This document shows, one piece after another, positions 5,454 through 24,614 of a DNA stretch of 64,000 bases. Made by a program: the position numbers and the translations under genes. The notes beneath the pieces are model-generated. The model ran no database searches and was not told the origin of the DNA. It saw nothing but the letters and a program-made list of their open reading frames with translations. Origin of the DNA: Escherichia coli. Its GTDB lineage: Bacteria; Pseudomonadota; Gammaproteobacteria; Enterobacterales; Enterobacteriaceae. Numbering within the stretch: position 1 is the first letter of the stretch; each line of letters opens with the position of its first letter. The stretch lies in assembly GCF_016903815.1 (NCBI RefSeq), contig NZ_CP069973.1, one strand, 5' to 3'.

Positions 5454-8400
5454 TTAGTCTCCAGGATTTCCGGGGCGGTTCAGCTGTTCATTAAAACGTT
5501 GTCCAGGCTGATCATAAAGTGCGCGTAATGTCTCCGCGGATGGCCGCGGTTGCATTTGCTGCATGCAGGGTTTCTGGTGGTAATCAAAATACTGTGGCAG
5601 ATGCTGGATCTCTGCTTTGTTTTCAATTACCCGTTGAAGGGCTCTTTGACGCAACTCTCTTGATGATTTGTCACGGATCGATTCCAATTGTAGCTGGCTG
5701 CCGCTACTAATTCGCTTACGAGCAGCATCAAAATCAAAGCGAATAGCCAATAGACTCGGCGTAGTCTCACTTAGCTGCAATTCCCCTAATTGCACTGATT
5801 CACGCTTATCTTTAATATAAACAATGATCTTATCATCAAGTTCAAAGCTGAGGTCAGCACCGGATTCCGTAGTATATGGGTAGAGTAAGCAACCACTCGG
5901 TGATTCCTGAAAGTCAGTAGAGTCGATGTTGACTATATCTCGTAGGTCTACTTCTGTATCAGATAATGCCTGCCATAACTCAATTGGGCTTGACTCACTA
6001 CTATCGAAGTCATCTTCATCCATCTCTTGATTAGGATTAGCTCGCTCAATGATGGCATCAATTACTGGCTCGAGGTTAAACAGTAGTTCAATAAAAGTAT
6101 TACGCTGATTAAGTGAGCCACGTTGTAATGAAAGTTGAGTATTAATTTTAGCCTGGGAATATTTACCAGCCTTTATACTTTCTTCGATCGATAATCCTTT
6201 TTCATACACTATTCTATTAATAGTGCGATTATCAGGATCTAAGTCTATCAATAGCCGCTCTCCTAGGCCAGTGATGTAACAACGCAATTCATGCGCAAAG
6301 CGTGGGTTAGATGACCAGTTACATTGAAAATAATAGATCCCATCATTTTGTTCTAGAAGCTTCACTTCTTGCGGCCAATCATCTGTGCCCCAGCAAACAG
6401 GAATTACCTTATCCTGTGACTCAGACGCCACAACTTGATTAATCTCAGCTTGTTCCGGTGCTCGAATTGACTGCAGCAAAGGATCGAGCGCGATAGGTAT
6501 ACCGTCAACGGTTTGTTTTGCGCGTTCTAGCTCAGCCTGCACCAGTACTGGCATATCTTCACTAAATAGCTCCTCCACCATACGATATACTGCAAAGCAA
6601 TCTCGCCCAAAAGCATCAGTACTTTCGGGATTCTCTGGCTGGTAGCGATTATCTGCAGTTAATTCATCACTGAATTCAAGCAATCCAATCAGAGTAATTA
6701 CTGTCTGCTCCCCGACTTGTACCAGCAGTTTCTCTGGGCAAAGATCTCCATGAGGTAACTGCTTTTCATGAAAAGCATGAATGGTGTTGATCAACTTTTC
6801 CGCAATTGTAAAACGTTGGGATTGTACTAACACGTTCTCAGCAATAAACTGTGACCACGGTAGGCCATCCACATACTCGCTCACTACATACAAGCCGCCT
6901 TGTCCTAATAGTCCATAGGACTGCACCTTAGGAGTTGGCAGATTTATATGCGTAAGCTTATCGATCCGTTGCTTAAAAGCGTGGATACGGCGGTTAACAC
7001 CAGGTTGTTGAGGGGTCAAAATAACACCATCCCACAATTTTACCTGCAGAGCTTTCCCACCTTGTTCACAGTGATAACTGATGCTGCCAGTCGTAGCAAT
7101 AGCAGCAAGAGCAGAGTAAACCATAGACAACTGTTCAGGAAGTGGAGGAAACTCAATTAACACACCAACGCTGTTCATCCCTTCGCGAAAGAATTTGTTT
7201 TGCTTTAATTCTTGATAAATCTGGTTAGCTTCATCAAATTCTTGGCTATGTTCCTTAGTAGCTGCATTAAACTCATTGAGCATTATGTCCGCACGTGGAA
7301 AGCGTTTACTTGGCTCAAGGTTAAGAGCTTGCTCAAACCAGCTATTTAGAATACCGCTAAAAGGATCAGTTAATGGAGCTCTCCATTCAGGCATCTGTCC
7401 AGGAGTCAGTAATGATTCACCTGCAAAACAAATACGATAAGCAATTACAGCCAACATGAATACATCTAGGCGATAGGGCTCAACTGCTTCTTCAAAAGCA
7501 TCTTCGGGCAAAATATATGGAGCACTTTGCAATGTCGGACGCAATGACTCTAGGCTATTATGTCCCTCCAGTGAGGCTGCGCCAAAGCCAGTAACGACAA
7601 TGCTCTTCTGATCCCCTGCGTACCATAGATTGTGCGGGTCAATATCACAATGACTGATACCCAAGCTATGTAATTCCGAGAATGGAGCTAATAATGCACG
7701 AACGCGATCAATACGCTCAGATTTACTCCATCCGTCAGCTTCGCTATCTAGAATCTCATCTAATCGGCTAAAACTACGGCGTAACTCATACAGCTCACGG
7801 GCATCATCAGTTATATCCTCCTCGGATAGTTCCCTTACAGCACGCAACATATAATCCTGCATAGTTGCGCTGCCATGACGAACTAGGCGACCGACTCGAG
7901 TCTCACGCAGAGCTATCTCAGCCCACAATGTTTGCATTGCGTTTGCTACACCCAAGGCATCAAAGTTCCACTGCCGTAGCAGACCTCTGTGTTGACTATT
8001 GTCTTTGTGGGTAGCCCTGAATTCGTTGTAGACCATGTGAGGGTGACTAAAGAATGGCTTATCGTTCGCAAGATAACCGCTTTCTTTTAGTGGCAAAGGC
8101 CTGACTTTTGGTCCTTCAAAGAAGGACTTAATTATAGGTAATGCCTCATCAGAATTTGGTCGAGGCTTTCCCCCTTCAAAAAGATGAAAAAAGTTAGTGT
8201 GTTGCACCAGCTTTTCGTAATTTTTTGGGTTACCTATAGTCAAGAATTCATCACGGGTATGAACATAGCGCCTCTCACTTAATGGCAAGTTTTCAGGACC
8301 AGCTGTGCCACACAGCACTACATGAGCCTCAACATGCAAAAAGTAACCCAGCTTACGAGATAACTCTTCCTGCAACAAATCTTTTAGTCGCAGTGCATGC

Positions 8401-8678
8401 TCACGCTTGATCTGATAGGGACTTTTGCCTCGTGACTTACCATTTTGCAGCCACTTCCCCCCTTCAAATGTGATGTTACCATTCCACTCTTTAAGCTCGA
8501 CTAATAGCAGACGGTCAGCAGTAATAATTAGCATATCGATTTCCATCGACCCTTGGCTATCAGTAACAACTAAGCCAGCATAGCCAAACCAACTATCTGG
8601 TAACTGCTTAACCATCATATCAACTGTTTTGGTTTCGCTGCGGTGCAGGCCAGCACCACCTACTATCTGATACTTCAC
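5454..8678 (-). CDS. Large uncharacterized protein: N-terminal NERD-like nuclease-related domain followed by two protein-kinase-like domains and a ~370-aa C-terminal region; native 3' end replaced by IS629 sequence
   Basis: 1074-aa ORF; NERD-like motif [22 protein letters not shown]; kinase catalytic-loop-like motifs [11 protein letters not shown]...GFG and [11 protein letters not shown]; last 9 codons (LNRPGNPGD) are encoded by the IS629 inverted repeat. Confidence 0.7.
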
Positions 8679-15841: not shown

Positions 15842-16068
15842 TGCGTCCTGCCCGTGAATAAGCTGACGTGTTATGGTTTGCGGATGGGGTTGATGGAATA
15901 AGTGAAGAACCGGGGCAGAACGGGAAGATCAGGTCACCGACAAGGGACAGAACACCGGATGTGGTTCAGAGTGAATGATCTCCGTTGACTTCAGTTCACA
16001 TCATTAAGCAAGGCGGTAAGGTTTTACCGACGGAATGTTTCCAGGACAGGAAGCTCAGGATTTAAGCT

Positions 16069-16635: not shown

Positions 16636-18128
16636 GCTGATGACTCCTGAAAGTTAATGACGTTTTAAGTGCTGTAAACGAATTAATGCTTTCGCTCATA
16701 ATCAGATCTAAAACGGTAATAACTTACAGACGGTATTTATCAGGCATGCTGTAACAGAATGGATACGTCGGTTATTAACGACACACAGCGTTGTGCTGAA
16801 GGGTATGAGTTATCTGATGGCATTGTCTATAGAGATGAGATAAACGAGGTGCGAAGAAAATACAGATTCAATACAACACAGTGAAATACAGAAAAATACG
16901 AACTGTAATCCCGCTGCCAGGCGGTTAGGAAACATATTACAACTATAAGCTCATGGTTTGTAAATTTGCTCTCAGTGAGTCTGAAAAAACGTTTATAAGG
17001 TCACCACAATAAACTCACACGCGCTTATTCAATCTGTTCTCCAGGATATGAACGTTAACGACACACGATAGCATAAGACAACATACAATGGATGAATAAT
17101 TTTCACCCAGTACCTTAAACAATACAACCGGCAACAAATATAATCAGAAATTCACTCTGTTAATTCTGTTGTTTATCCTGCGCTGTTAAACATGACGGAA
17201 CCATGGATACCTTATCAAAGAGTAAGCATTCAGTTAATCAGTAATGACAGAGAAATTGATGTTCACCAGAATAGTTAAAACACTTCAGATAAACAATCAT
17301 TGTTAAGCAAATACGGTTCATAATGGATAAATTAGAATCAATTACTGTTTTACTGAAGATGAGAATAGATGAATATCAACAATAGCGTAGTAGAGAATAA
17401 CTTACCTGAACATCATATGAGTTACAGTAGTTATGATTGAGGGATGGAGTGAATACGATAACAAGAGTAATACTAATGGAATGTGTAAAGATTGAGAGTG
17501 AGTGAAGACAGGAAGTAAATAACAATAGAGATTGTATGAAAAAGGGAGTGAATAAAGAATATATAAAGAATAAATATAATTATAGTAATAAACCTAAATT
17601 AAAATCATCCTTGTTTGATGAGTAAAAATAATTCTAGAAAATGAATCTGTCTGAAAACTCTTTCTCAGAGATTAACCGATCAGATGCTCAACGGACTCAA
17701 TAAATTGGCTGAGTCAGGTTACCTCATCCACACTCTATTTGTTTCTAGAAGGATCTACCATTTTGTTCATCTACCGGAACACATCAATTTAGTAACTCGA
17801 TAATATCGGTTATGTAGATATTTATCGTTGCTACCAATGCCTAGATTATTATTCTCCAAGTATTTTCTTGACTTACAGGCTAATTTTGAAACAAATGTCA
17901 TGCTATTTTAGGAAAAGAACCTATGCAAAAGTCTGCTATGAGCGAGGAGCAGATATTCATCTGGTATACAAAGACAATATCGCTTAAGTCATCAGTGCTG
18001 CCACTTTAACCACTAGCTCTGCTCTTTTTGGACTTTTGAGCTAAAAATTAAATCTGACAGTGTGATAAGGTGCAAGTTTCTGAAAATACGCCAGTTGTTT
18101 TACACTCAAAAGCCCCCATTACTATCTG

Positions 18129-18884
18129 ATGTTAATGGCGCAGCAGTTATCTTTCAGATTATTAAGGGGAAACAAGAGTATGGCAAGATGTACAGCTCCT
18201 GTACGTGGACATAGCTCAGCAGCAGCTGCTGCTGCCTGTCCCGCATGTCGTAATCGCAGTGGTTATCGCCGCAGTAGCTACAGTTATGATAGTTACCCTT
18301 CTTACTCATCAGGCTCTAGCGGTGGCGGAAGTTATGGAGGCAGTAGCGGTGGTTCCAGCAGCAGCGCGAAGCCACGTTGGTCAAAATCAGGGTCTTCCGT
18401 TTCTTACACAACAGCCCAAGTACAATCACTCACACCAATTCGACAAGCGGTAGAGAAACTTGCCATTGAGCAACCTGATCTGCGTGATGTCTTTCTTTGC
18501 CATGCTTGGGATGACCGACAAGGTATTGCCAAAGAGTTACACGATTTGCTCGAAGCGGCAGGTGTCAAAGTATGGTTCAGCGAAAAGGATCTTGCCCTTG
18601 GTGTTCCGATGATGCGTGCCATTGATAAAGGATTAGCAAACTCTCGAATCGGCTTGGTTTTAGTGACACCTGCATTGTTAAACCGTCTTCCTAAAGAAGG
18701 CGTTGCTGATAAAGAACTTTCCGCCTTACTGGCAGGCAACCAACTCGTTCCCATCGTGCATAACACGACGTATGAAGCTCTCCGTAATGTCAGTCCTTTG
18801 CTTGCATCCCGAAGCGGCCTCGACACGGGAGAAGATACATTGGCAGTTGTTGCAACAAAAATTGCAGAGCTGATCACTGTTTAG
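18129..18884 (+). CDS. TIR-domain protein with Ser/Gly/Tyr-rich low-complexity N-terminal region
   Basis: C-terminal ~140 aa DVFLCHAWDDRQGIAKELHDLLEAAGVKVWFSEKDLALGVPMMRAIDKGLANSRIGLVLVTPALL fits the TIR pattern; start codon uncertain (18129, 18135 or 18180). Confidence 0.75.
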   Translation: MLMAQQLSFRLLRGNKSMARCTAPVRGHSSAAAAAACPACRNRSGYRRSSYSYDSYPSYSSGSSGGGSYGGSSGGSSSSAKPRWSKSGSSVSYTTAQVQSLTPIRQAVEKLAIEQPDLRDVFLCHAWDDRQGIAKELHDLLEAAGVKVWFSEKDLALGVPMMRAIDKGLANSRIGLVLVTPALLNRLPKEGVADKELSALLAGNQLVPIVHNTTYEALRNVSPLLASRSGLDTGEDTLAVVATKIAELITV

Positions 18885-19307
18885 TTTATCCAAGCCACCG
18901 TTAAATATTTCCAGCTCATGAATCTGGTCTGCTATTGCAGGCCAGATATCAGTCAATACTGAAAGGTTTGACCTGCTCCCCGTTGATTAACATAGACTGA
19001 TATAGCAACTTCCGCTTTTGGCACAAAGCAGACCATGAGAAGATAGACGCTATAACATTTGAGTCCTACCAATCGATCTGTTCATTTCCATAAATGGCAG
19101 TAAATGCAAATAACCAGAACAGCCAGGCGCTTTTCGACTTATGGTCGATGTTGCAAAGAGTGAGGAGTGGAAAGCAAGCGTGCGAACGAAAGTAGATGGC
19201 AATCCATTGCATTACTTCAGGACGACTTTTCAGAAAGCGAGCTAAGGGCGTCAGCCAACGCCCTTACCGTGGCATAAGCTCAGGCACCGGATGCCGTTTT
19301 ACAGGGC

Positions 19308-20039
19308 TCACCTGCCATCCAGTAAACGCCCCGGCCCACGACTGCAACCATAATTACGTTGACCAGAACCGTCATGCTGCTTCGTCTCATACTTCACGAG
19401 ATAACAGGCTCTCTCCATGGCTTTCTGCATCGCTTCCACATCACCACGCTTGACCCAGAGCACAGCGGATCCACCAGATTTTTTGTCAGAAGCTTTCCGG
19501 GTATCAGAACATCCACCCGACAAAGGCGTATCATCGGAAGAAGGGCGAGCATCAGATGATGCCGGTTTACGGAAAGGCGTCCGCCTGGAAAAATGAACCA
19601 GTCCATTACCCTGCCAGGGTTCAAGATGCAGAGCGCTACACCATGCCAGCTTGATCAGCGTCGCCAGCGAAGAAGGAACGGTGAAATCCCCTAGCGAGCA
19701 CCAGGTATCTTTGTTGAGCAGTAATATCACGTGATAATGTTTCCTGCCTTTTTCCTTGCCAAACTCCCGACACCAGAAATAACGCAGAGTGGTTGCACGC
19801 ACACGCTTGTTGGCACGTCGTTTATGTCGCTGGTAAGCCTGAATTTTTGCTTTCAGGGATTCGAAAAAACGAGAAATCACCGCTGAATCCGAATCGGGAT
19901 CCATGATGGTGACAGGCATATACTCAGGGAAACGTAAATCCATCCGGATTAACGAGACGACACGGTGTTGCGCCAGGGCACTGTTGAGAATACTTTCAAA
20001 ACGGGATAACCAGTAAGCATTGTGTATTGGTTGATTCAT
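19308..20039 (-). CDS. YagK/YfjJ-family (inovirus Gp2-like) protein, paralog
   Basis: 243-aa ORF MNQPIHNAYWLSRFESILNSALAQHRVVSLIRMDLRFPEY... parallel to the two other paralogs. Confidence 0.6.
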   Translation of the reverse strand: MNQPIHNAYWLSRFESILNSALAQHRVVSLIRMDLRFPEYMPVTIMDPDSDSAVISRFFESLKAKIQAYQRHKRRANKRVRATTLRYFWCREFGKEKGRKHYHVILLLNKDTWCSLGDFTVPSSLATLIKLAWCSALHLEPWQGNGLVHFSRRTPFRKPASSDARPSSDDTPLSGGCSDTRKASDKKSGGSAVLWVKRGDVEAMQKAMERACYLVKYETKQHDGSGQRNYGCSRGPGRLLDGR

Positions 20040-21682
20040 GATGAGAGATCTCCGTTGATTTGGATTGACTTCACATCATTAATCACCGCGGTAAAACTTT
20101 ACGGCATCCCGCCATTGAGCAACGCCAATGGCTCCTGATTAAAACAGAATGAATCCCCCACGAAGAAAAAATAAACCTACACGCAGAGTAAAACACACAA
20201 CAACGGCATAAATGGTTTTTAAAAACTACAAAGCCTGAAGGGAAACGGATCCACAGAACGTGCAAACAAAACACCAAAAACGCAATCAGAACGCTTTCTG
20301 CTGCTGTGAATCAACAACAATACCAAAACCTACAGCTTAACCACAAAACTCAATCACAGAGCCGAATAGCGTGTTTAAAACCTGTTTACAGATAACCCTG
20401 CCACAAGAACAAAGTTCACCAATATCAGAATCGATTTTCTCATCCTGAAAATGTTACGTTTCACTACACAGCATAAAAACGATTAACTATTGATAACGTA
20501 AACCTCATCTGAATCAAAACACCAGAACCAATCATCACGCTTTTCCTGAAAAGAGCCTTGCGCTGAGAAAAAACACCAGGGTCAGTTAATCATCTCATCA
20601 ATCTCATCGTTACAAAAACATCCATAAAACCATTTAACAAAATCATCGTAAGCACACAGTAAATCACGCCAGGTTATCTCAGCCAAATTTTCGTTTTACA
20701 TAAAGACACTTGTCTCAGGTTAACGACTAAAAACACAAAAACTCAGAAAAGGTTAAACGTAACTTCAGAAAAATAGAATATCATATTGATTGCTTAAACA
20801 GGAAAGATTGTTTTGTAGTAGCATTAAGCTGATTTTAGTTAACGTAAAAACAGGACTGACAGGTTTACTAAACTGGATGTGTATCAGACAAAGCAATGTG
20901 TATAACAATACTTAATGAAAACACTTGTAGAATTGTTTATGAAAATACGTGTATGTCTGGTAAAACACTTAGTAGAAAATACGTGTATAACACTTACTGA
21001 AATGCTTAGTAAAAATACTTAGTAAAATATGTGTAGAATTATCTATTTAAAAAGATATGTATATAACACTTAATAAAAACATGTGTATATAGTATCATAC
21101 CGACATTCTCAACATCTTCAGACTTCCATACATACTGGGTGTTGATTTCTCACTTTTACAGCCAGCATGGAGTTTTCTGTCCTAAAAACAGAGCAGATTT
21201 ACTCTGGAATTATTTTTCTACCCCCGTATTTCAGGCCCCAGAAAAGACAATCCGAAGCAAACCGTTTGTCAGCCTCCATATCATCTTTTACCCCCGGAAA
21301 GTGATCGCGTTTACAACCAGAATGACAGCCATACTGATTATGTCGTCTCCCGGCCCCCTTCACATATAACATGCATGTCTGTCATTGCTTACTGCTCCAC
21401 ATGACCGGATTTCACATACAGGATGCACATTCAGTGTTTTTATCGCTACTATAACAGACAGATTACTGTCGTCTTTACTCTTCAGATTGTTAATCTGACC
21501 ACAAGAACAGCCGAACGGCAAAACGCCCTCCACAAGGGGCACATGAACCATAGTTGATAGCATGTTTTTCCTAATCAAGGAATAGTTCAGGAATATTTTA
21601 TTGCATTAATAACTGGCGAATAATCGTTCTGTGAACACAAAATGCTTTTATTTGTAAATTTTATTGCATTGCACTCGTTTTA

Positions 21683-22522
21683 TTGATATGGGGTTTAATA
21701 ACAGATAACCCGGAAAGAAGGAGAAAACAGATGACATTACGGATTAACGATCAGGGGCGAGATAAACAGAATCAATTTTTATCGAAAAATGGAGAAAATC
21801 TGAATTCGTTAAAATCGCGTCATGTGCAGGATAGGCATTTACCTGAATGGCTTAAGGATAAAGTTGCAGCATTCTGGTTTTGTCTGGTGATAAAGGATAT
21901 GAAAGTGTCAGGGAGCAGTTACTATGAACTTACCATGCAACTTCCCACTTCTGAAGAATCTGTTTGCATCAGTAAGCTGTCATCCTCAACCCATGAGATT
22001 CGGCTGGAGATCATCAGGCGATGGATTGATAGTGTAGCGCAGATAGAAACGGAAGCTTTTACTAAAAATCTCGTTGATGCCATCTATAAAAACTGGAAGG
22101 AAATCGGGAACAAAAACCAGGCCACATGGCTTAAAAAAAATCCGGAACAACTCGAGTGGGCATGGAAATATATTAACATTCGTATTCCCGAGTCACATTT
22201 AACCTGGTTTTGCCCCGTCAATAACGAAGAGAAACGCATTGCCATCTTAGCATTGCTTAAAATACTGTATCCCGGAGATATACCATGCCAGTACAACGAC
22301 AAAGAGTTTCATGTCGGGATCTGCGCTGAAGAACATTTTTACAGAAGAATGCACGACGCTTTCAGAAAACAGTTTATCGACGGGAAAAAAGATAAACGGG
22401 TACAAATTAACGTAAAGATATCACCGTCCGCAAAAAGCGCTCTGGACAGACTGACCAGAGCGAGGAAAACAACACAGCAGGCTATTCTGGAACAACTGAT
22501 TCTGAACGGTAGACTGGATTAA
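21683..22522 (+). CDS. Hypothetical protein (no recognisable domain; possible ribbon-helix-helix-like C-terminus)
   Basis: 279-aa ORF; likely true start at MTLRINDQ (21731); function unknown. Confidence 0.5.
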   Translation: MIWGLITDNPERRRKQMTLRINDQGRDKQNQFLSKNGENLNSLKSRHVQDRHLPEWLKDKVAAFWFCLVIKDMKVSGSSYYELTMQLPTSEESVCISKLSSSTHEIRLEIIRRWIDSVAQIETEAFTKNLVDAIYKNWKEIGNKNQATWLKKNPEQLEWAWKYINIRIPESHLTWFCPVNNEEKRIAILALLKILYPGDIPCQYNDKEFHVGICAEEHFYRRMHDAFRKQFIDGKKDKRVQINVKISPSAKSALDRLTRARKTTQQAILEQLILNGRLD

Positions 22523-23520
22523 CTTTCACTACTTCCACTCCTGGCAGTTTTCCTCTTTTTGTAGTGTCTCCCGGCTGCAGGCATCAGGTACTTTTCCGTC
22601 ATTTCGTTGCAGAACTCTTCAATGTAGTTAATCAGCTTCTGGTGTGCTTTCACCTTTTCTTCCCCGGGGGACGCTTTCAGATAAATGTCCTCCTTTTCCA
22701 CAAGTGTATTTATAAACTCTCCCGGACATCCCTGGTTATAAAGCAACGTGAAAAACAACACATTCCCCAGTCTCTCCAGTAACTGCGATTTAACCCTGTA
22801 TTGTTGTTTGCTGAGGATTGATTGTTTTATAAAGCTTAGTCTTGTTAAAAGTTGTTCAAATCCCGGTTCCAGTTTAAAAACAGATTTTAATACCAGGGAC
22901 TGATACTCCTGATAAAAAAGTTCAAACGTCGGGGATGCAGACTGACGAACAGATTTGGCTACAACCCATGGACTAAATCCCATGATTGGGATTTCCTTCG
23001 CTCCCTCCAGCGCACTCAGAGGTAGTCCAGCAATCCATGCGTCCAGCTTAGCCGAATCAATATCCCCGCTCAAAACCTCATACAAACTGCCCGTGAACGG
23101 TTGAGTCGGTTTTTTTGTTGTTTTACCTTCTGATTGCCTGAATCCATCCACTTTTCTCCGGATATTACGCGGAATCAGCATAAAAGGCGGGACATTAAGT
23201 GATAAACGTTTACCCGTCATACGATACCAGTGGCCCACCTCAACCTTAATCCGTGTATCTGGCCTTGTATCTGGCCTTGTATCTGGCCTTAGCTCAAGTG
23301 CTATTATGTTAAGCAGGTACAGATAACGCACCGTATAACAGTCAAAATGTTTCTCCGGATCAAACGGCTCTGATCGTTCTCTGCACACAAGTCCGCTGCG
23401 CTTCAGTATTCGCTGGGTATCTTTCCAGGCCTTACTCTGAAGAATGGTGGTAACTCTGGCTTTATTAGCAATCTCACGCAGCGCATCACTTTGTTGTGCC
23501 GTCATCTCTTCCCTCCACAC
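22519..23520 (-). CDS. Hypothetical protein containing in-frame tandem repeat (RPDT)x3, divergent from GTPase gene
   Basis: 333-aa ORF; 12-bp tandem repeat at ~23255-23292; function unknown. Confidence 0.55.
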   Translation of the reverse strand: MWREEMTAQQSDALREIANKARVTTILQSKAWKDTQRILKRSGLVCRERSEPFDPEKHFDCYTVRYLYLLNIIALELRPDTRPDTRPDTRIKVEVGHWYRMTGKRLSLNVPPFMLIPRNIRRKVDGFRQSEGKTTKKPTQPFTGSLYEVLSGDIDSAKLDAWIAGLPLSALEGAKEIPIMGFSPWVVAKSVRQSASPTFELFYQEYQSLVLKSVFKLEPGFEQLLTRLSFIKQSILSKQQYRVKSQLLERLGNVLFFTLLYNQGCPGEFINTLVEKEDIYLKASPGEEKVKAHQKLINYIEEFCNEMTEKYLMPAAGRHYKKRKTARSGSSES

Positions 23521-23611
23521 TTTGTCACTCCAGATTTTTTCACGTCCATATTACCTGAATGATAAACCGGATTAGTGTGATCCGGTTCAGCGAAATCAAC
23601 AGGATACCGGT

Positions 23612-24496
23612 ATGTCATTCAGCCATTCTTCCCTCTCTGCACAAGTGAAATCATATCTGACGTTTCTTCCTGAAGAAATTCGCCAGAAAATCCTTGAACA
23701 TCTCCACGGTGTTATTCATTACGAGCCCGTGATTGGCATTATGGGTAAATCCGGCACAGGCAAAAGCAGCCTGTGTAATGCCATTTTTCAGTCCCGTATC
23801 TGCGCCACGCATCCCCTGAACGGCTGCACCCGCCAGGCTCATCGTCTTACCCTGCAGCTCGGTGAACGCAGAATGACGCTGGTCGATCTGCCCGGCATTG
23901 GTGAAACACCGCAGCATGATCAGGAATACCGGACACTTTATCGTCAGCTGCTACCGGAACTGGATCTGATTATCTGGATCCTACGGGCTGATGAACGTGC
24001 GTATGCTGCCGATATTGCCATGCATCAGTTTTTACTGAATGAAGGTGCAGATCCCTCGCGTTTTCTGTTTGTTCTCAGCCATGCCGATCGCGTGTTTCCT
24101 GCTGAAGAATGGAACGACACAGAAAAATGCCCGTCCCGTCAGCAGGCGCTCTCACTGGCGACGGTGACAGCCCGGGTGGCAACCCTGTTCCCTTCATCAT
24201 TTCCGGTACTCTCCGTTGCTGCACCTGTCGGCTGGAACCTTCCGGCGTTTGTGTCGCTGATGATCCACGCACTGCCACCACAGGCAACCAGCGCGGTGTA
24301 TTCACATATCCGGGGAGAAAACCGCTCTGAACAGGCCCAGAAACACGCACAACAGACTTTTGGTGACGCCATCGGGAAAAGCTTTGACGCTGCCGTTGTC
24401 CGGTTCAGTTTTCCGGCCTGGATGTTACAGCTTCTCCGTAAAGCCCGGGACCGCATTATCCACCTGCTGGTCACACTGTGGGATCGTCTGTTCTGA
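23612..24496 (+). CDS. YeeP/YkfA-family GTPase (cryptic-prophage type)
   Basis: 294-aa ORF with P-loop GIMGKSGTGKSS and G-domain motif DLPG. Confidence 0.8.
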   Translation: MSFSHSSLSAQVKSYLTFLPEEIRQKILEHLHGVIHYEPVIGIMGKSGTGKSSLCNAIFQSRICATHPLNGCTRQAHRLTLQLGERRMTLVDLPGIGETPQHDQEYRTLYRQLLPELDLIIWILRADERAYAADIAMHQFLLNEGADPSRFLFVLSHADRVFPAEEWNDTEKCPSRQQALSLATVTARVATLFPSSFPVLSVAAPVGWNLPAFVSLMIHALPPQATSAVYSHIRGENRSEQAQKHAQQTFGDAIGKSFDAAVVRFSFPAWMLQLLRKARDRIIHLLVTLWDRLF

Positions 24497-24614
24497 GCGC
24501 CCCGGAGTCCCCCGTGGCAACCGTATACCTTTACACGACAACGGATTACGGTAACCACTGCCGTATACCGTCTGTCATTATCAATAACACGCTCTTTAAT
24601 TTCAGAGGTCAGTC

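Follow-up and report, generated by a model that had tools for sequence, protein, structure and literature searches.

A conserved convergent gene pair as a possible control region of CP4-like islands in Enterobacterales

The 64,000-nt stretch of Escherichia coli DNA analysed here (NCBI RefSeq assembly GCF_016903815.1, contig NZ_CP069973.1; hereafter the window) carries an island that adjoins the kps capsule locus and has a CP4-like backbone. Two genes within it, A on the plus and B on the minus strand, run towards each other and end in overlapping stop codons. Comparison with related loci leads us to read the pair as a control region at the centre of a family of CP4-57/CP4-44-like integrative islands in Enterobacterales, a reading we regard as plausible, if somewhat short of probable. 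A central control module is the simplest model that accommodates together the recurrent layout of these islands, the probable ribbon-helix-helix (RHH) domain of A, the phased repeats in front of it, the cassette behaviour of A and the conserved promoter region next to B.

Gene pair and conserved layout of the island

The two genes and their immediate neighbours are placed as follows.

21731..22522, plus strand: gene A, 263 aa from its ATG (the maximal open reading frame, from TTG at 21683, has 279 aa)
22519..23505, minus strand: gene B, 328 aa from its ATG (the maximal open reading frame, from GTG at 23520, has 333 aa)
22519..22522: 3' overlap of A and B, a 4-bp TTAA containing both stop codons
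23506..23611: divergent intergenic region between B and the GTPase gene
23612..24496, plus strand: YeeP/YfjP-type GTPase gene (MMR_HSR1), first gene of the operon faced by B
19308..20039, minus strand: YagK/YfjJ gene (inovirus Gp2/G2P Rep-like), first gene of the operon faced by A

Translation of both genes likely starts at internal ATGs with Shine-Dalgarno sites (AAGGAG at 21718–21723, 7 nt 5' of the ATG at 21731 in A; GGAGG 5' of the ATG at 23505 in B), rather than at the TTG and GTG of the maximal frames. An earlier note, made from the sequence of the window alone, had described convergent frames of 279 aa (plus) and 333 aa (minus) with a 3' overlap, the latter divergent from a YeeP-type GTPase gene across approximately 90 bp; both descriptions were borne out, with an overlap of 4 bp and a spacer of 91 bp from the maximal frame of B, or 106 bp from its ATG to that of the GTPase at 23612. 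In RefSeq/PGAP annotation A (WP_000175256.1) and B (WP_029396404.1) are each a ‘hypothetical protein’, and identical DNA is present in E. coli strain 222.

The frames are more than chance, because they remain open in homologues as distant as 22–35% identity and because the ratio of non-synonymous to synonymous substitution rates (dN/dS) lies below 1 (0.27–0.57 for A and 0.38–0.65 for B, compared with 0.11–0.33 for the GTPase). Judged by these comparisons, A and B are real genes on which purifying selection is somewhat relaxed. GC content is low (40–44%), and both products are basic (isoelectric point, pI, 9.0–9.8). No terminator was predicted where the two genes meet, either by a terminator scan or by RNA folding; barring intervention by Rho, antisense transcription by read-through is therefore likely. 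Given convergent genes, overlapping stop codons and no predicted terminator, each transcript would run antisense into the other gene, and expression of A and B could be mutually antagonistic.

The backbone of the island lies on either side of the pair, with AlpA and YagK/YfjJ (G2P Rep-like) genes on one side and, on the other, an operon in the order GTPase-DUF905-DUF932-ArdB-RadC-DUF987-CbeA-CbtA-DUF5983-DUF957-DUF4942. The B→←A arrangement was present in all of the approximately 18 distinct contexts examined (E. coli, Citrobacter, Serratia and Lelliottia), and wherever the available DNA sufficed the same layout recurred: operon ← GTPase, B → ← A, AlpA → YfjJ →. Homologues of B with 57–95% identity, found in many E. 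coli islands, were always followed by a convergent gene of 243–289 aa with a 4-bp overlap and always had the GTPase gene 105–106 bp away; the same B/A arrangement was seen in five out of five B matches sampled at regular intervals along the ranked list. When 1.84 billion representative proteins were searched with a profile, about 17 full-length relatives of B came up at 22–31% identity, from sources including Citrobacter, Hafnia, Serratia, Lelliottia and Enterobacter; where the available DNA sufficed, their convergent partners were homologues of A at 20–26% identity. The layout was also kept in metagenomic relatives (22–31% identity) and in Citrobacter amalonaticus. Divergence proceeded in step across the locus; in L013 (L numbers denote the loci compared) the GTPase, B and A were 51%, 33% and 26% identical to those of the window, respectively. 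The partial Hafnia locus L021 was checked for the B-GTPase intergenic sequence only.

There are departures from this layout. In Lelliottia sp. SL45 (L031, 9198–10001) B has a convergent A-like gene beside it and the operon begins with a WYL gene, preceded by an 800-bp gene-free gap; the GTPase gene is absent from this locus and tblastn found no remnant of it. This associates B with the head of the operon, not strictly with the GTPase. In CP4-57 of E. coli K-12, the yfjJ-yfjP interval holds AbpAB, YfjM and RnlAB instead of A and B.

Prevalence was estimated by megablast over 5426 complete E. coli genomes, in which the window-type (short) B and an alternative, long B, described below, were counted separately.

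GTPase: 2507 places in 1870 genomes
Short B: 810 places in 741 genomes
Long B: 1068 places in 975 genomes

Adding up the two forms of B and setting them against the GTPase counts puts the share of GTPase loci with a detectable gene of the B family at about three quarters. A genome-collection scan for the family found just two loci, because the family is strain-variable and rare among species representatives.

On the evidence of synteny and shared divergence, the pair, or at least B, is conserved island backbone that co-diverges with the AlpA/YfjJ and GTPase-DUF932-ArdB-RadC-CbtA modules. The earlier note had called A and B cargo genes and had proposed conservation of the pair across islands as a check; the pair proved to be conserved from E. 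coli to Citrobacter, Serratia and Lelliottia, was present in all sampled contexts and co-diverged with the backbone, K-12 CP4-57 being the exception, so that the cargo label was not supported. Cargo would be recognised by patchy presence, unrelated alternatives and an incongruent phylogeny; A and B diverge in step with the GTPase and, K-12 CP4-57 aside, the alternative occupant of the site in E. coli is itself a homologue of B.

Gene A, its allelic block and the DNA in front of it

Within A and its upstream region the following features were located.

22394..22507, plus strand: probable RHH DNA-binding domain of A, residues ~222–259, the strand RVQINVKIS followed by two helices
21731..22090, plus strand: hypervariable N-terminal ~120 residues of A, 16–56% identity between alleles
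21579..21598, plus strand: two GAATAG/GAATAT repeats with 11-bp phasing, candidate operator of A (a third GAATA at 21618–21622)
21595–21607 and 21658–21670, plus strand: exact 13-nt direct repeat ATTTTATTGCATT in the A promoter region
Within 21540–21730: TTATTGCAT repeats, in the same stretch as the GAATAG repeats

The product of A (pI 9.25) consists of a tryptophan-rich helical N-terminal region and a C-terminal stretch of probable RHH type. Both are shared by the A family (243–320 aa), in which the C-terminal stretch reads RVQINVKISPSAKxALDRLxxxxxxTQQxILExLIL. This stretch matched PF10723 (RepB-RCR_reg) in seven out of 13 family members (best E 2e-5) and PF01402 (RHH_1) in six out of 13 (best 7e-4); precomputed PF10723 matches were available on P0077–P0082, and an Arc-like repressor PHROG was matched by three members of the A family. 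The AlphaFold2 (AF2) monomer of A, a weak model, has helices at residues 232–245 and 249–258 after an unstructured segment (223–231), and a fold search with it gave no match. Taken as family-wide profile matches, these data make a C-terminal ribbon-helix-helix DNA-binding domain in A probable rather than proven; as a probable RHH-type protein, A appears to be new and unusually long.

Conservation is distributed very unevenly over A, the RHH region being 38–93% identical among alleles versus 16–56% for residues 1–120. Flanking DNA is 82–88% identical on both sides of a divergent block that comprises A and its promoter and, in some comparisons, also the last ~63 codons of B. In comparison with L002-type islands this block spans 21568–22086, which corresponds to the promoter and the N-terminal half of A, between flanks of 86–88% identity; in comparison with L006-type islands it spans 21425–22711, that is, all of A and the last ~63 codons of B. 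By this pattern of identities, A behaves as an allelic cassette inside conserved flanks.

Repeats of GAATAG with 11-bp phasing were found 120–195 bp 5' of the A ATG in all six of the six loci with the RHH strand RVQINVKIS (type I), in two copies in the window and L025, four in L002, L027 and L028, and about five in L026, and they persist where the surrounding promoter DNA is unrelated. In loci with the strand RVQISALIS the tandem repeat is absent and an inverted GAATAT pair is found instead. The 20-nt pattern is unique in the window (one match, 0.03 expected). This link between the type of RHH strand and the type of repeat is the best evidence for sequence-specific DNA binding by A, which we infer from it. 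TTATTGCA recurs upstream of type-II A alleles too.

A second GAATA-N6-GAATA lies at 16058–16073 of L001 (approximately 17557–17572 of the window), in AT-rich DNA 5' of the ThsB gene, and may be a further A site or a chance occurrence.

The repeats in front of A lie within a longer region of note. Positions 20040–21730 comprise 1.7 kb without a RefSeq gene, at 31–40% GC and with a strong C/A skew over 20100–20760. The stretch is of similar length in E. coli island variants, at 74–89% identity, roughly the neutral level, and the equivalent stretch of Citrobacter/Serratia-type islands is only 0.4–0.7 kb long. Constraint on it beyond neutrality was not shown, its divergence of 14–18% being close to the synonymous divergence (dS) of the flanking genes. 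Its identification as a pseudogene of a 176-aa gene of some islands was rejected, as tblastn gave no match and only a dubious 114-aa ORF call could be aligned. An Rfam scan of 19000–24600 gave one candidate, PhotoRC-I (24.3 bits against a gathering threshold of 45), at 19549–19616 on the minus strand inside the YfjJ-like coding sequence, which was judged to be due to chance.

Within this gene-free DNA between the YfjJ-like gene and A, an iteron-like array occupies 20890–21095, 650–850 bp 5' of A, and consists of about six copies of AYAYGTGTATA alternating with about seven of ACTTAnTRAAA (Tandem Repeats Finder reports a period of 13 at 20962–21027). The stretch is common to other island variants, including the 536 type, with an alignment suggesting differing copy number there. 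Such an array could be an origin or a protein-binding array.

Gene B, its alternative allele and other features of the island

Four features belong to B and to the spacer that separates it from the GTPase gene.

23254..23290, minus strand: 12-bp tandem repeat in B (TGTATCTGGCCT x3.1), encoding (RPDT)3 in a low-confidence loop
22519..22716, minus strand: C-terminal ~66 residues of B, two long helices, of two types that track the A allele and not the rest of B
23538–23555: block TTTCACGTCCATATTACC, conserved to distant loci
23565..23587: dyad AACCGGAT-N7-ATCCGGTT, between the B promoter block and the GTPase start

The product of B is basic (pI 9.55; 9.3–9.8 in homologues), mostly helical with a small sheet, and its family is marked by the conserved motifs SKAWxxTQRxLKRSG, IRRKVDxFxQ, GSLY and LExLGxxLFF; RPDT occurs once, twice or three times in homologues. 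An AF2 model built from a 22-sequence alignment shows helices and a small sheet and is confident (predicted local distance difference test, pLDDT, 84.6; predicted template modelling score, pTM, 0.83). B and its diverse homologues matched no family in Pfam, NCBIfam, PADLOC or PHROGs, the model showed no structural similarity over most of the chain to entries of PDB and BFVD, and sequence-profile searches of solved structures returned only chance-level matches for A and B alike. On the basis of this model, B is an uncharacterised protein family without a fold match in PDB or BFVD. The statement of the earlier note that neither protein has recognisable domains, for which it had suggested remote-homology searches and structure prediction, thus stands for B, which has no known family or fold, and is qualified for A by a weak but family-consistent C-terminal RHH match.

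The C-terminus of B varies together with A. Over nine non-independent loci, belonging to two main classes, the Spearman coefficient was 0.92 between the A N-terminus and the B C-terminus, and about −0.1 between A and the B N-terminus; in L027 and L028 the breakpoint lies inside B, and the B C-terminus stays with A. This co-variation fits contact between A and B, and it fits linkage of the adjacent 3' ends equally well.

Within E. coli the spacer between B and the GTPase hardly varies, and the long-B allele shares it up to 23536. Read on the minus strand, the TTTCACGTCCATATTACC block offers B a −10-like TAATAT; its plus-strand reading contains TTCACG, which is a −35 candidate for the GTPase. 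The TCAC..GGTAATATGGnCGTGAAA block and a dyad at a fixed position persist in the distant loci L013, L019 and L021, and the B promoter block and dyad are conserved as far as loci whose GTPase is only 51% identical. At the equivalent place CCGGA-N9-TCCGG is found in Serratia and GCCG-N14-CGGC in L013, with arms that have changed yet remain complementary. The dyad of the window folds as a 10-bp hairpin, which is not significant in comparison with shuffled sequences (z −1.0), and may be either an operator or a 5'-untranslated-region hairpin of the GTPase mRNA.

In E. coli 536 (L023, 7753–8976), ATCC 8739, UM146 and NU14, and at locus L024, a single gene of 407 aa (WP_001107221.1) takes the place of the A/B pair, in the position and orientation of B beside the same GTPase. 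Its product, remotely homologous to B (hhalign probability 96.2%, E 2.5e-9, 238 columns), has an additional ~100-aa Cys-rich N-terminal extension (C-x4-C...C-x2-H motif) and no A partner. The possibility that long B is a fusion of B with RHH was rejected (hhalign probability 0.4% against the A family), and long B had no match in PADLOC.

Recognisable defence cargo, namely ThsB and MkoA, sits elsewhere in the island.

18180–18884, plus strand: full-length ThsB1-type TIR protein (Thoeris), PADLOC E 2.7e-128
5454–8678, minus strand: MkoA homologue (Mokosh), 1074 aa, PADLOC E 2e-188, ~1030 of 1607 profile positions covered

The ThsB1 gene lies in very AT-rich DNA between two YagK/YfjJ paralogues, with no ThsA evident beside it. 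The MkoA gene encodes 1652 aa in strain 222 (L001), and the copy in the window thus appears to be truncated or disrupted. In the GTPase, the C-terminal third (residues 181–285) weakly matched the PADLOC profile of LeoBC from the Eleos system (E 1.6e-6); in Pfam, the G domain gave weak matches to AIG1 and to immunity GTPases of the IIGP type.

Explanations considered and comparison with known systems

Under the control-region reading, the backbone would consist of two outward-facing sets, one for excision and replication (AlpA and the G2P-like YfjJ), the other an ‘establishment’ operon (GTPase, WYL or helix-turn-helix protein, DUF932, ArdB antirestriction, RadC and CbeA/CbtA), with A and B facing inward between them. 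A would be a sequence-specific RHH protein, probably binding the 11-bp-phased GAATAG repeats 5' of its own gene and thereby controlling its own promoter, the AlpA/YfjJ side divergent from it, or both. Its hypervariable N-domain may make each allele specific, whether to a signal, to a partner protein or to the matching helices at the C-terminus of B, and would work like the heteroimmune repressors of phages and the Stl of Staphylococcus aureus pathogenicity islands (SaPI). B would be a basic protein whose action, on or together with the operon that the GTPase leads, runs through the conserved promoter and dyad; in the alternative allele B would work without A, using its own Cys-rich N-terminal extension. 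The reality of the genes, their synteny, the cassette structure, the repeats and the lack of known homologues are observed, whereas binding to DNA, its targets, contact between A and B and antisense interference are inferred. The earlier note had proposed defence or regulatory genes: the regulatory half gains from the RHH stretch, the phased repeats 5' of A and the conserved promoter and dyad 5' of B, and the defence half, with no PADLOC match, gains nothing.

Several observations weigh against a control region. A of the window falls below threshold for Pfam RHH (13.7 bits against a cut-off of 20.5, E 0.065), a profile of its C-terminal domain found no solved RHH by sequence, and its AF2 model shows no strand, which would be expected for a monomer, but is poor (pLDDT 62). 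The GAATAG repeats sit in AT-rich DNA, and the island has one further GAATA-N6-GAATA. For B, the fold search revealed no recognisable DNA-binding fold, and physical linkage of the adjacent 3' ends can explain the co-variation of its C-terminus with A, which was measured on nine non-independent loci. Literature searches by accession and gene name returned nothing on either protein, and no experiment or expression data were found. Finally, a dN/dS of 0.3–0.65 together with extreme allelic divergence is also compatible with a role in conflict, be it defence or anti-defence.

The last point leads to the main rival, doubtful in our estimation, in which B and A, alone or with the GTPase, would be an unrecognised system for anti-phage defence, anti-defence or helper sensing, and the hypervariable N-domain of A an arms-race surface. 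Such a role would suit the extreme divergence of A alleles within conserved flanks, a dN/dS of A and B above that of the GTPase, the AbpAB and RnlAB defence systems of the matching K-12 CP4-57 interval, the ThsB and MkoA genes of the window island, the weak LeoBC match of the GTPase, and the antirestriction and RadC functions encoded by the adjoining operon. However, PADLOC-DB v2 gave no match for A, B or long B, and 22 B-family members yielded just two single hits at chance level; no enzymatic or effector domain is recognisable in either protein, the pair co-diverges with the backbone and is not patchy as cargo would be, and Lelliottia retains B and A although it lacks the GTPase. It is unlikely that the genes are a replication or partition module of the excised island, with A a ParR/ParG/CopG-like protein at centromere or copy-control repeats, B an adaptor and the GTPase a motor or switch. 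PF10723 describes replication regulators of rolling-circle plasmids, the neighbouring YagK/YfjJ has a G2P Rep-like domain, the 11-bp-phased direct repeats resemble ParR/parC of plasmid R1, an iteron-like array lies 650–850 bp 5' of A, and A matched a ‘replication initiation protein’ PHROG weakly (E 0.015). Yet the GTPase is of the TRAFAC MMR_HSR1 type, which differs from the partition NTPases ParA, ParM and TubZ, and is dispensable in L031, where it is missing; A has its RHH at the C-terminus of 263 aa, unlike ParR or ParG, and is not in an operon with the GTPase, the convergent B standing between them; long B occurs without A in 975 genomes, and the window has just two repeats.

That B is a toxin and A its autoregulating RHH antitoxin, in a toxin-antitoxin or addiction pair, seems very unlikely. 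RHH domains are frequent in antitoxins, A is more variable than B, and the two are tightly linked, but they are convergent and do not form one operon of co-directional genes as type II systems do, the RHH of A lies at the C- and not the N-terminus, B-family genes stand without A in 975 E. coli genomes and the B/A pair without the GTPase in Lelliottia, B matches no toxin family, and the island already carries CbeA/CbtA. That A and B are decaying or functionless frames held by linkage to the backbone is hardly credible: relaxed purifying selection (dN/dS up to 0.65), low GC (40–44%) and a ‘hypothetical’ annotation everywhere would be expected of such frames, but intact frames and conserved motifs down to 22% identity across genera, conserved Shine-Dalgarno sites and promoter block, and the high-scoring model of B would not.

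The control-region reading can be carried further by analogy. The master switch of a very common family of Enterobacterales islands would then comprise B, as a new fold and family, together with either a hypervariable RHH protein as partner or a fused Cys-rich domain, and in most cases a YeeP-type GTPase; as with SaPI Stl, the variable domain of A would sense a specific helper phage, plasmid or host signal. We consider this extension decidedly doubtful; if it were true, ‘cryptic prophages’ would be inducible, mobilisable satellites rather than fossils. CP4-like islands, which sit at tRNA and other hotspots and carry virulence, capsule-adjacent and defence cargo, occur in no fewer than one third of the complete E. 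coli genomes (1870 out of 5426 for the GTPase subtype alone), and to our knowledge their control is essentially unknown beyond AlpA. A two-gene module placed exactly between the excision/replication genes and the antirestriction and toxin-antitoxin operon would offer a concrete handle on island switching and ‘heteroimmune’ behaviour. B, as a widespread family with a confident predicted structure unlike anything solved, makes a good target for structural and functional work. The module resembles something familiar, the control region of a mobile element; it is common and testable, and no surprising mechanism has been demonstrated for it.

Among known systems, the CopG and RepB-RCR_reg proteins (PF01402, PF10723) share with A the probable strand-helix-turn-helix pattern of its C-terminal ~40 residues and the phased repeats 5' of the gene; they are, however, ~45–90 aa long and essentially RHH alone, whereas A has 243–320 aa with a ~200-aa W-rich helical region in front. 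ParR-parC of plasmid R1 and ParG likewise offer a parallel to a probable RHH protein beside 11-bp-phased direct repeats with an NTPase gene nearby, and differ from A in its C-terminal RHH, its two to five repeats, an MMR_HSR1 GTPase that is sometimes absent, and a chromosomally integrated element. The defence cargo of K-12 CP4-57 (AbpAB, YfjM, RnlAB) occupies the same interval between a YfjJ-type gene and a YfjP-type GTPase, but is made up of recognised defence and toxin-antitoxin genes of patchy distribution, with no sequence relationship to A or B seen. The Stl repressor of SaPI and the cI repressors of lambdoid phages use helix-turn-helix domains, not RHH, and the A module, unlike theirs, includes a second, convergent gene, B. 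Like them, A would be a regulator divergent from excision and replication genes (here AlpA/YfjJ), and like them it is a heterologous cassette between conserved flanks that diverges among otherwise similar elements.

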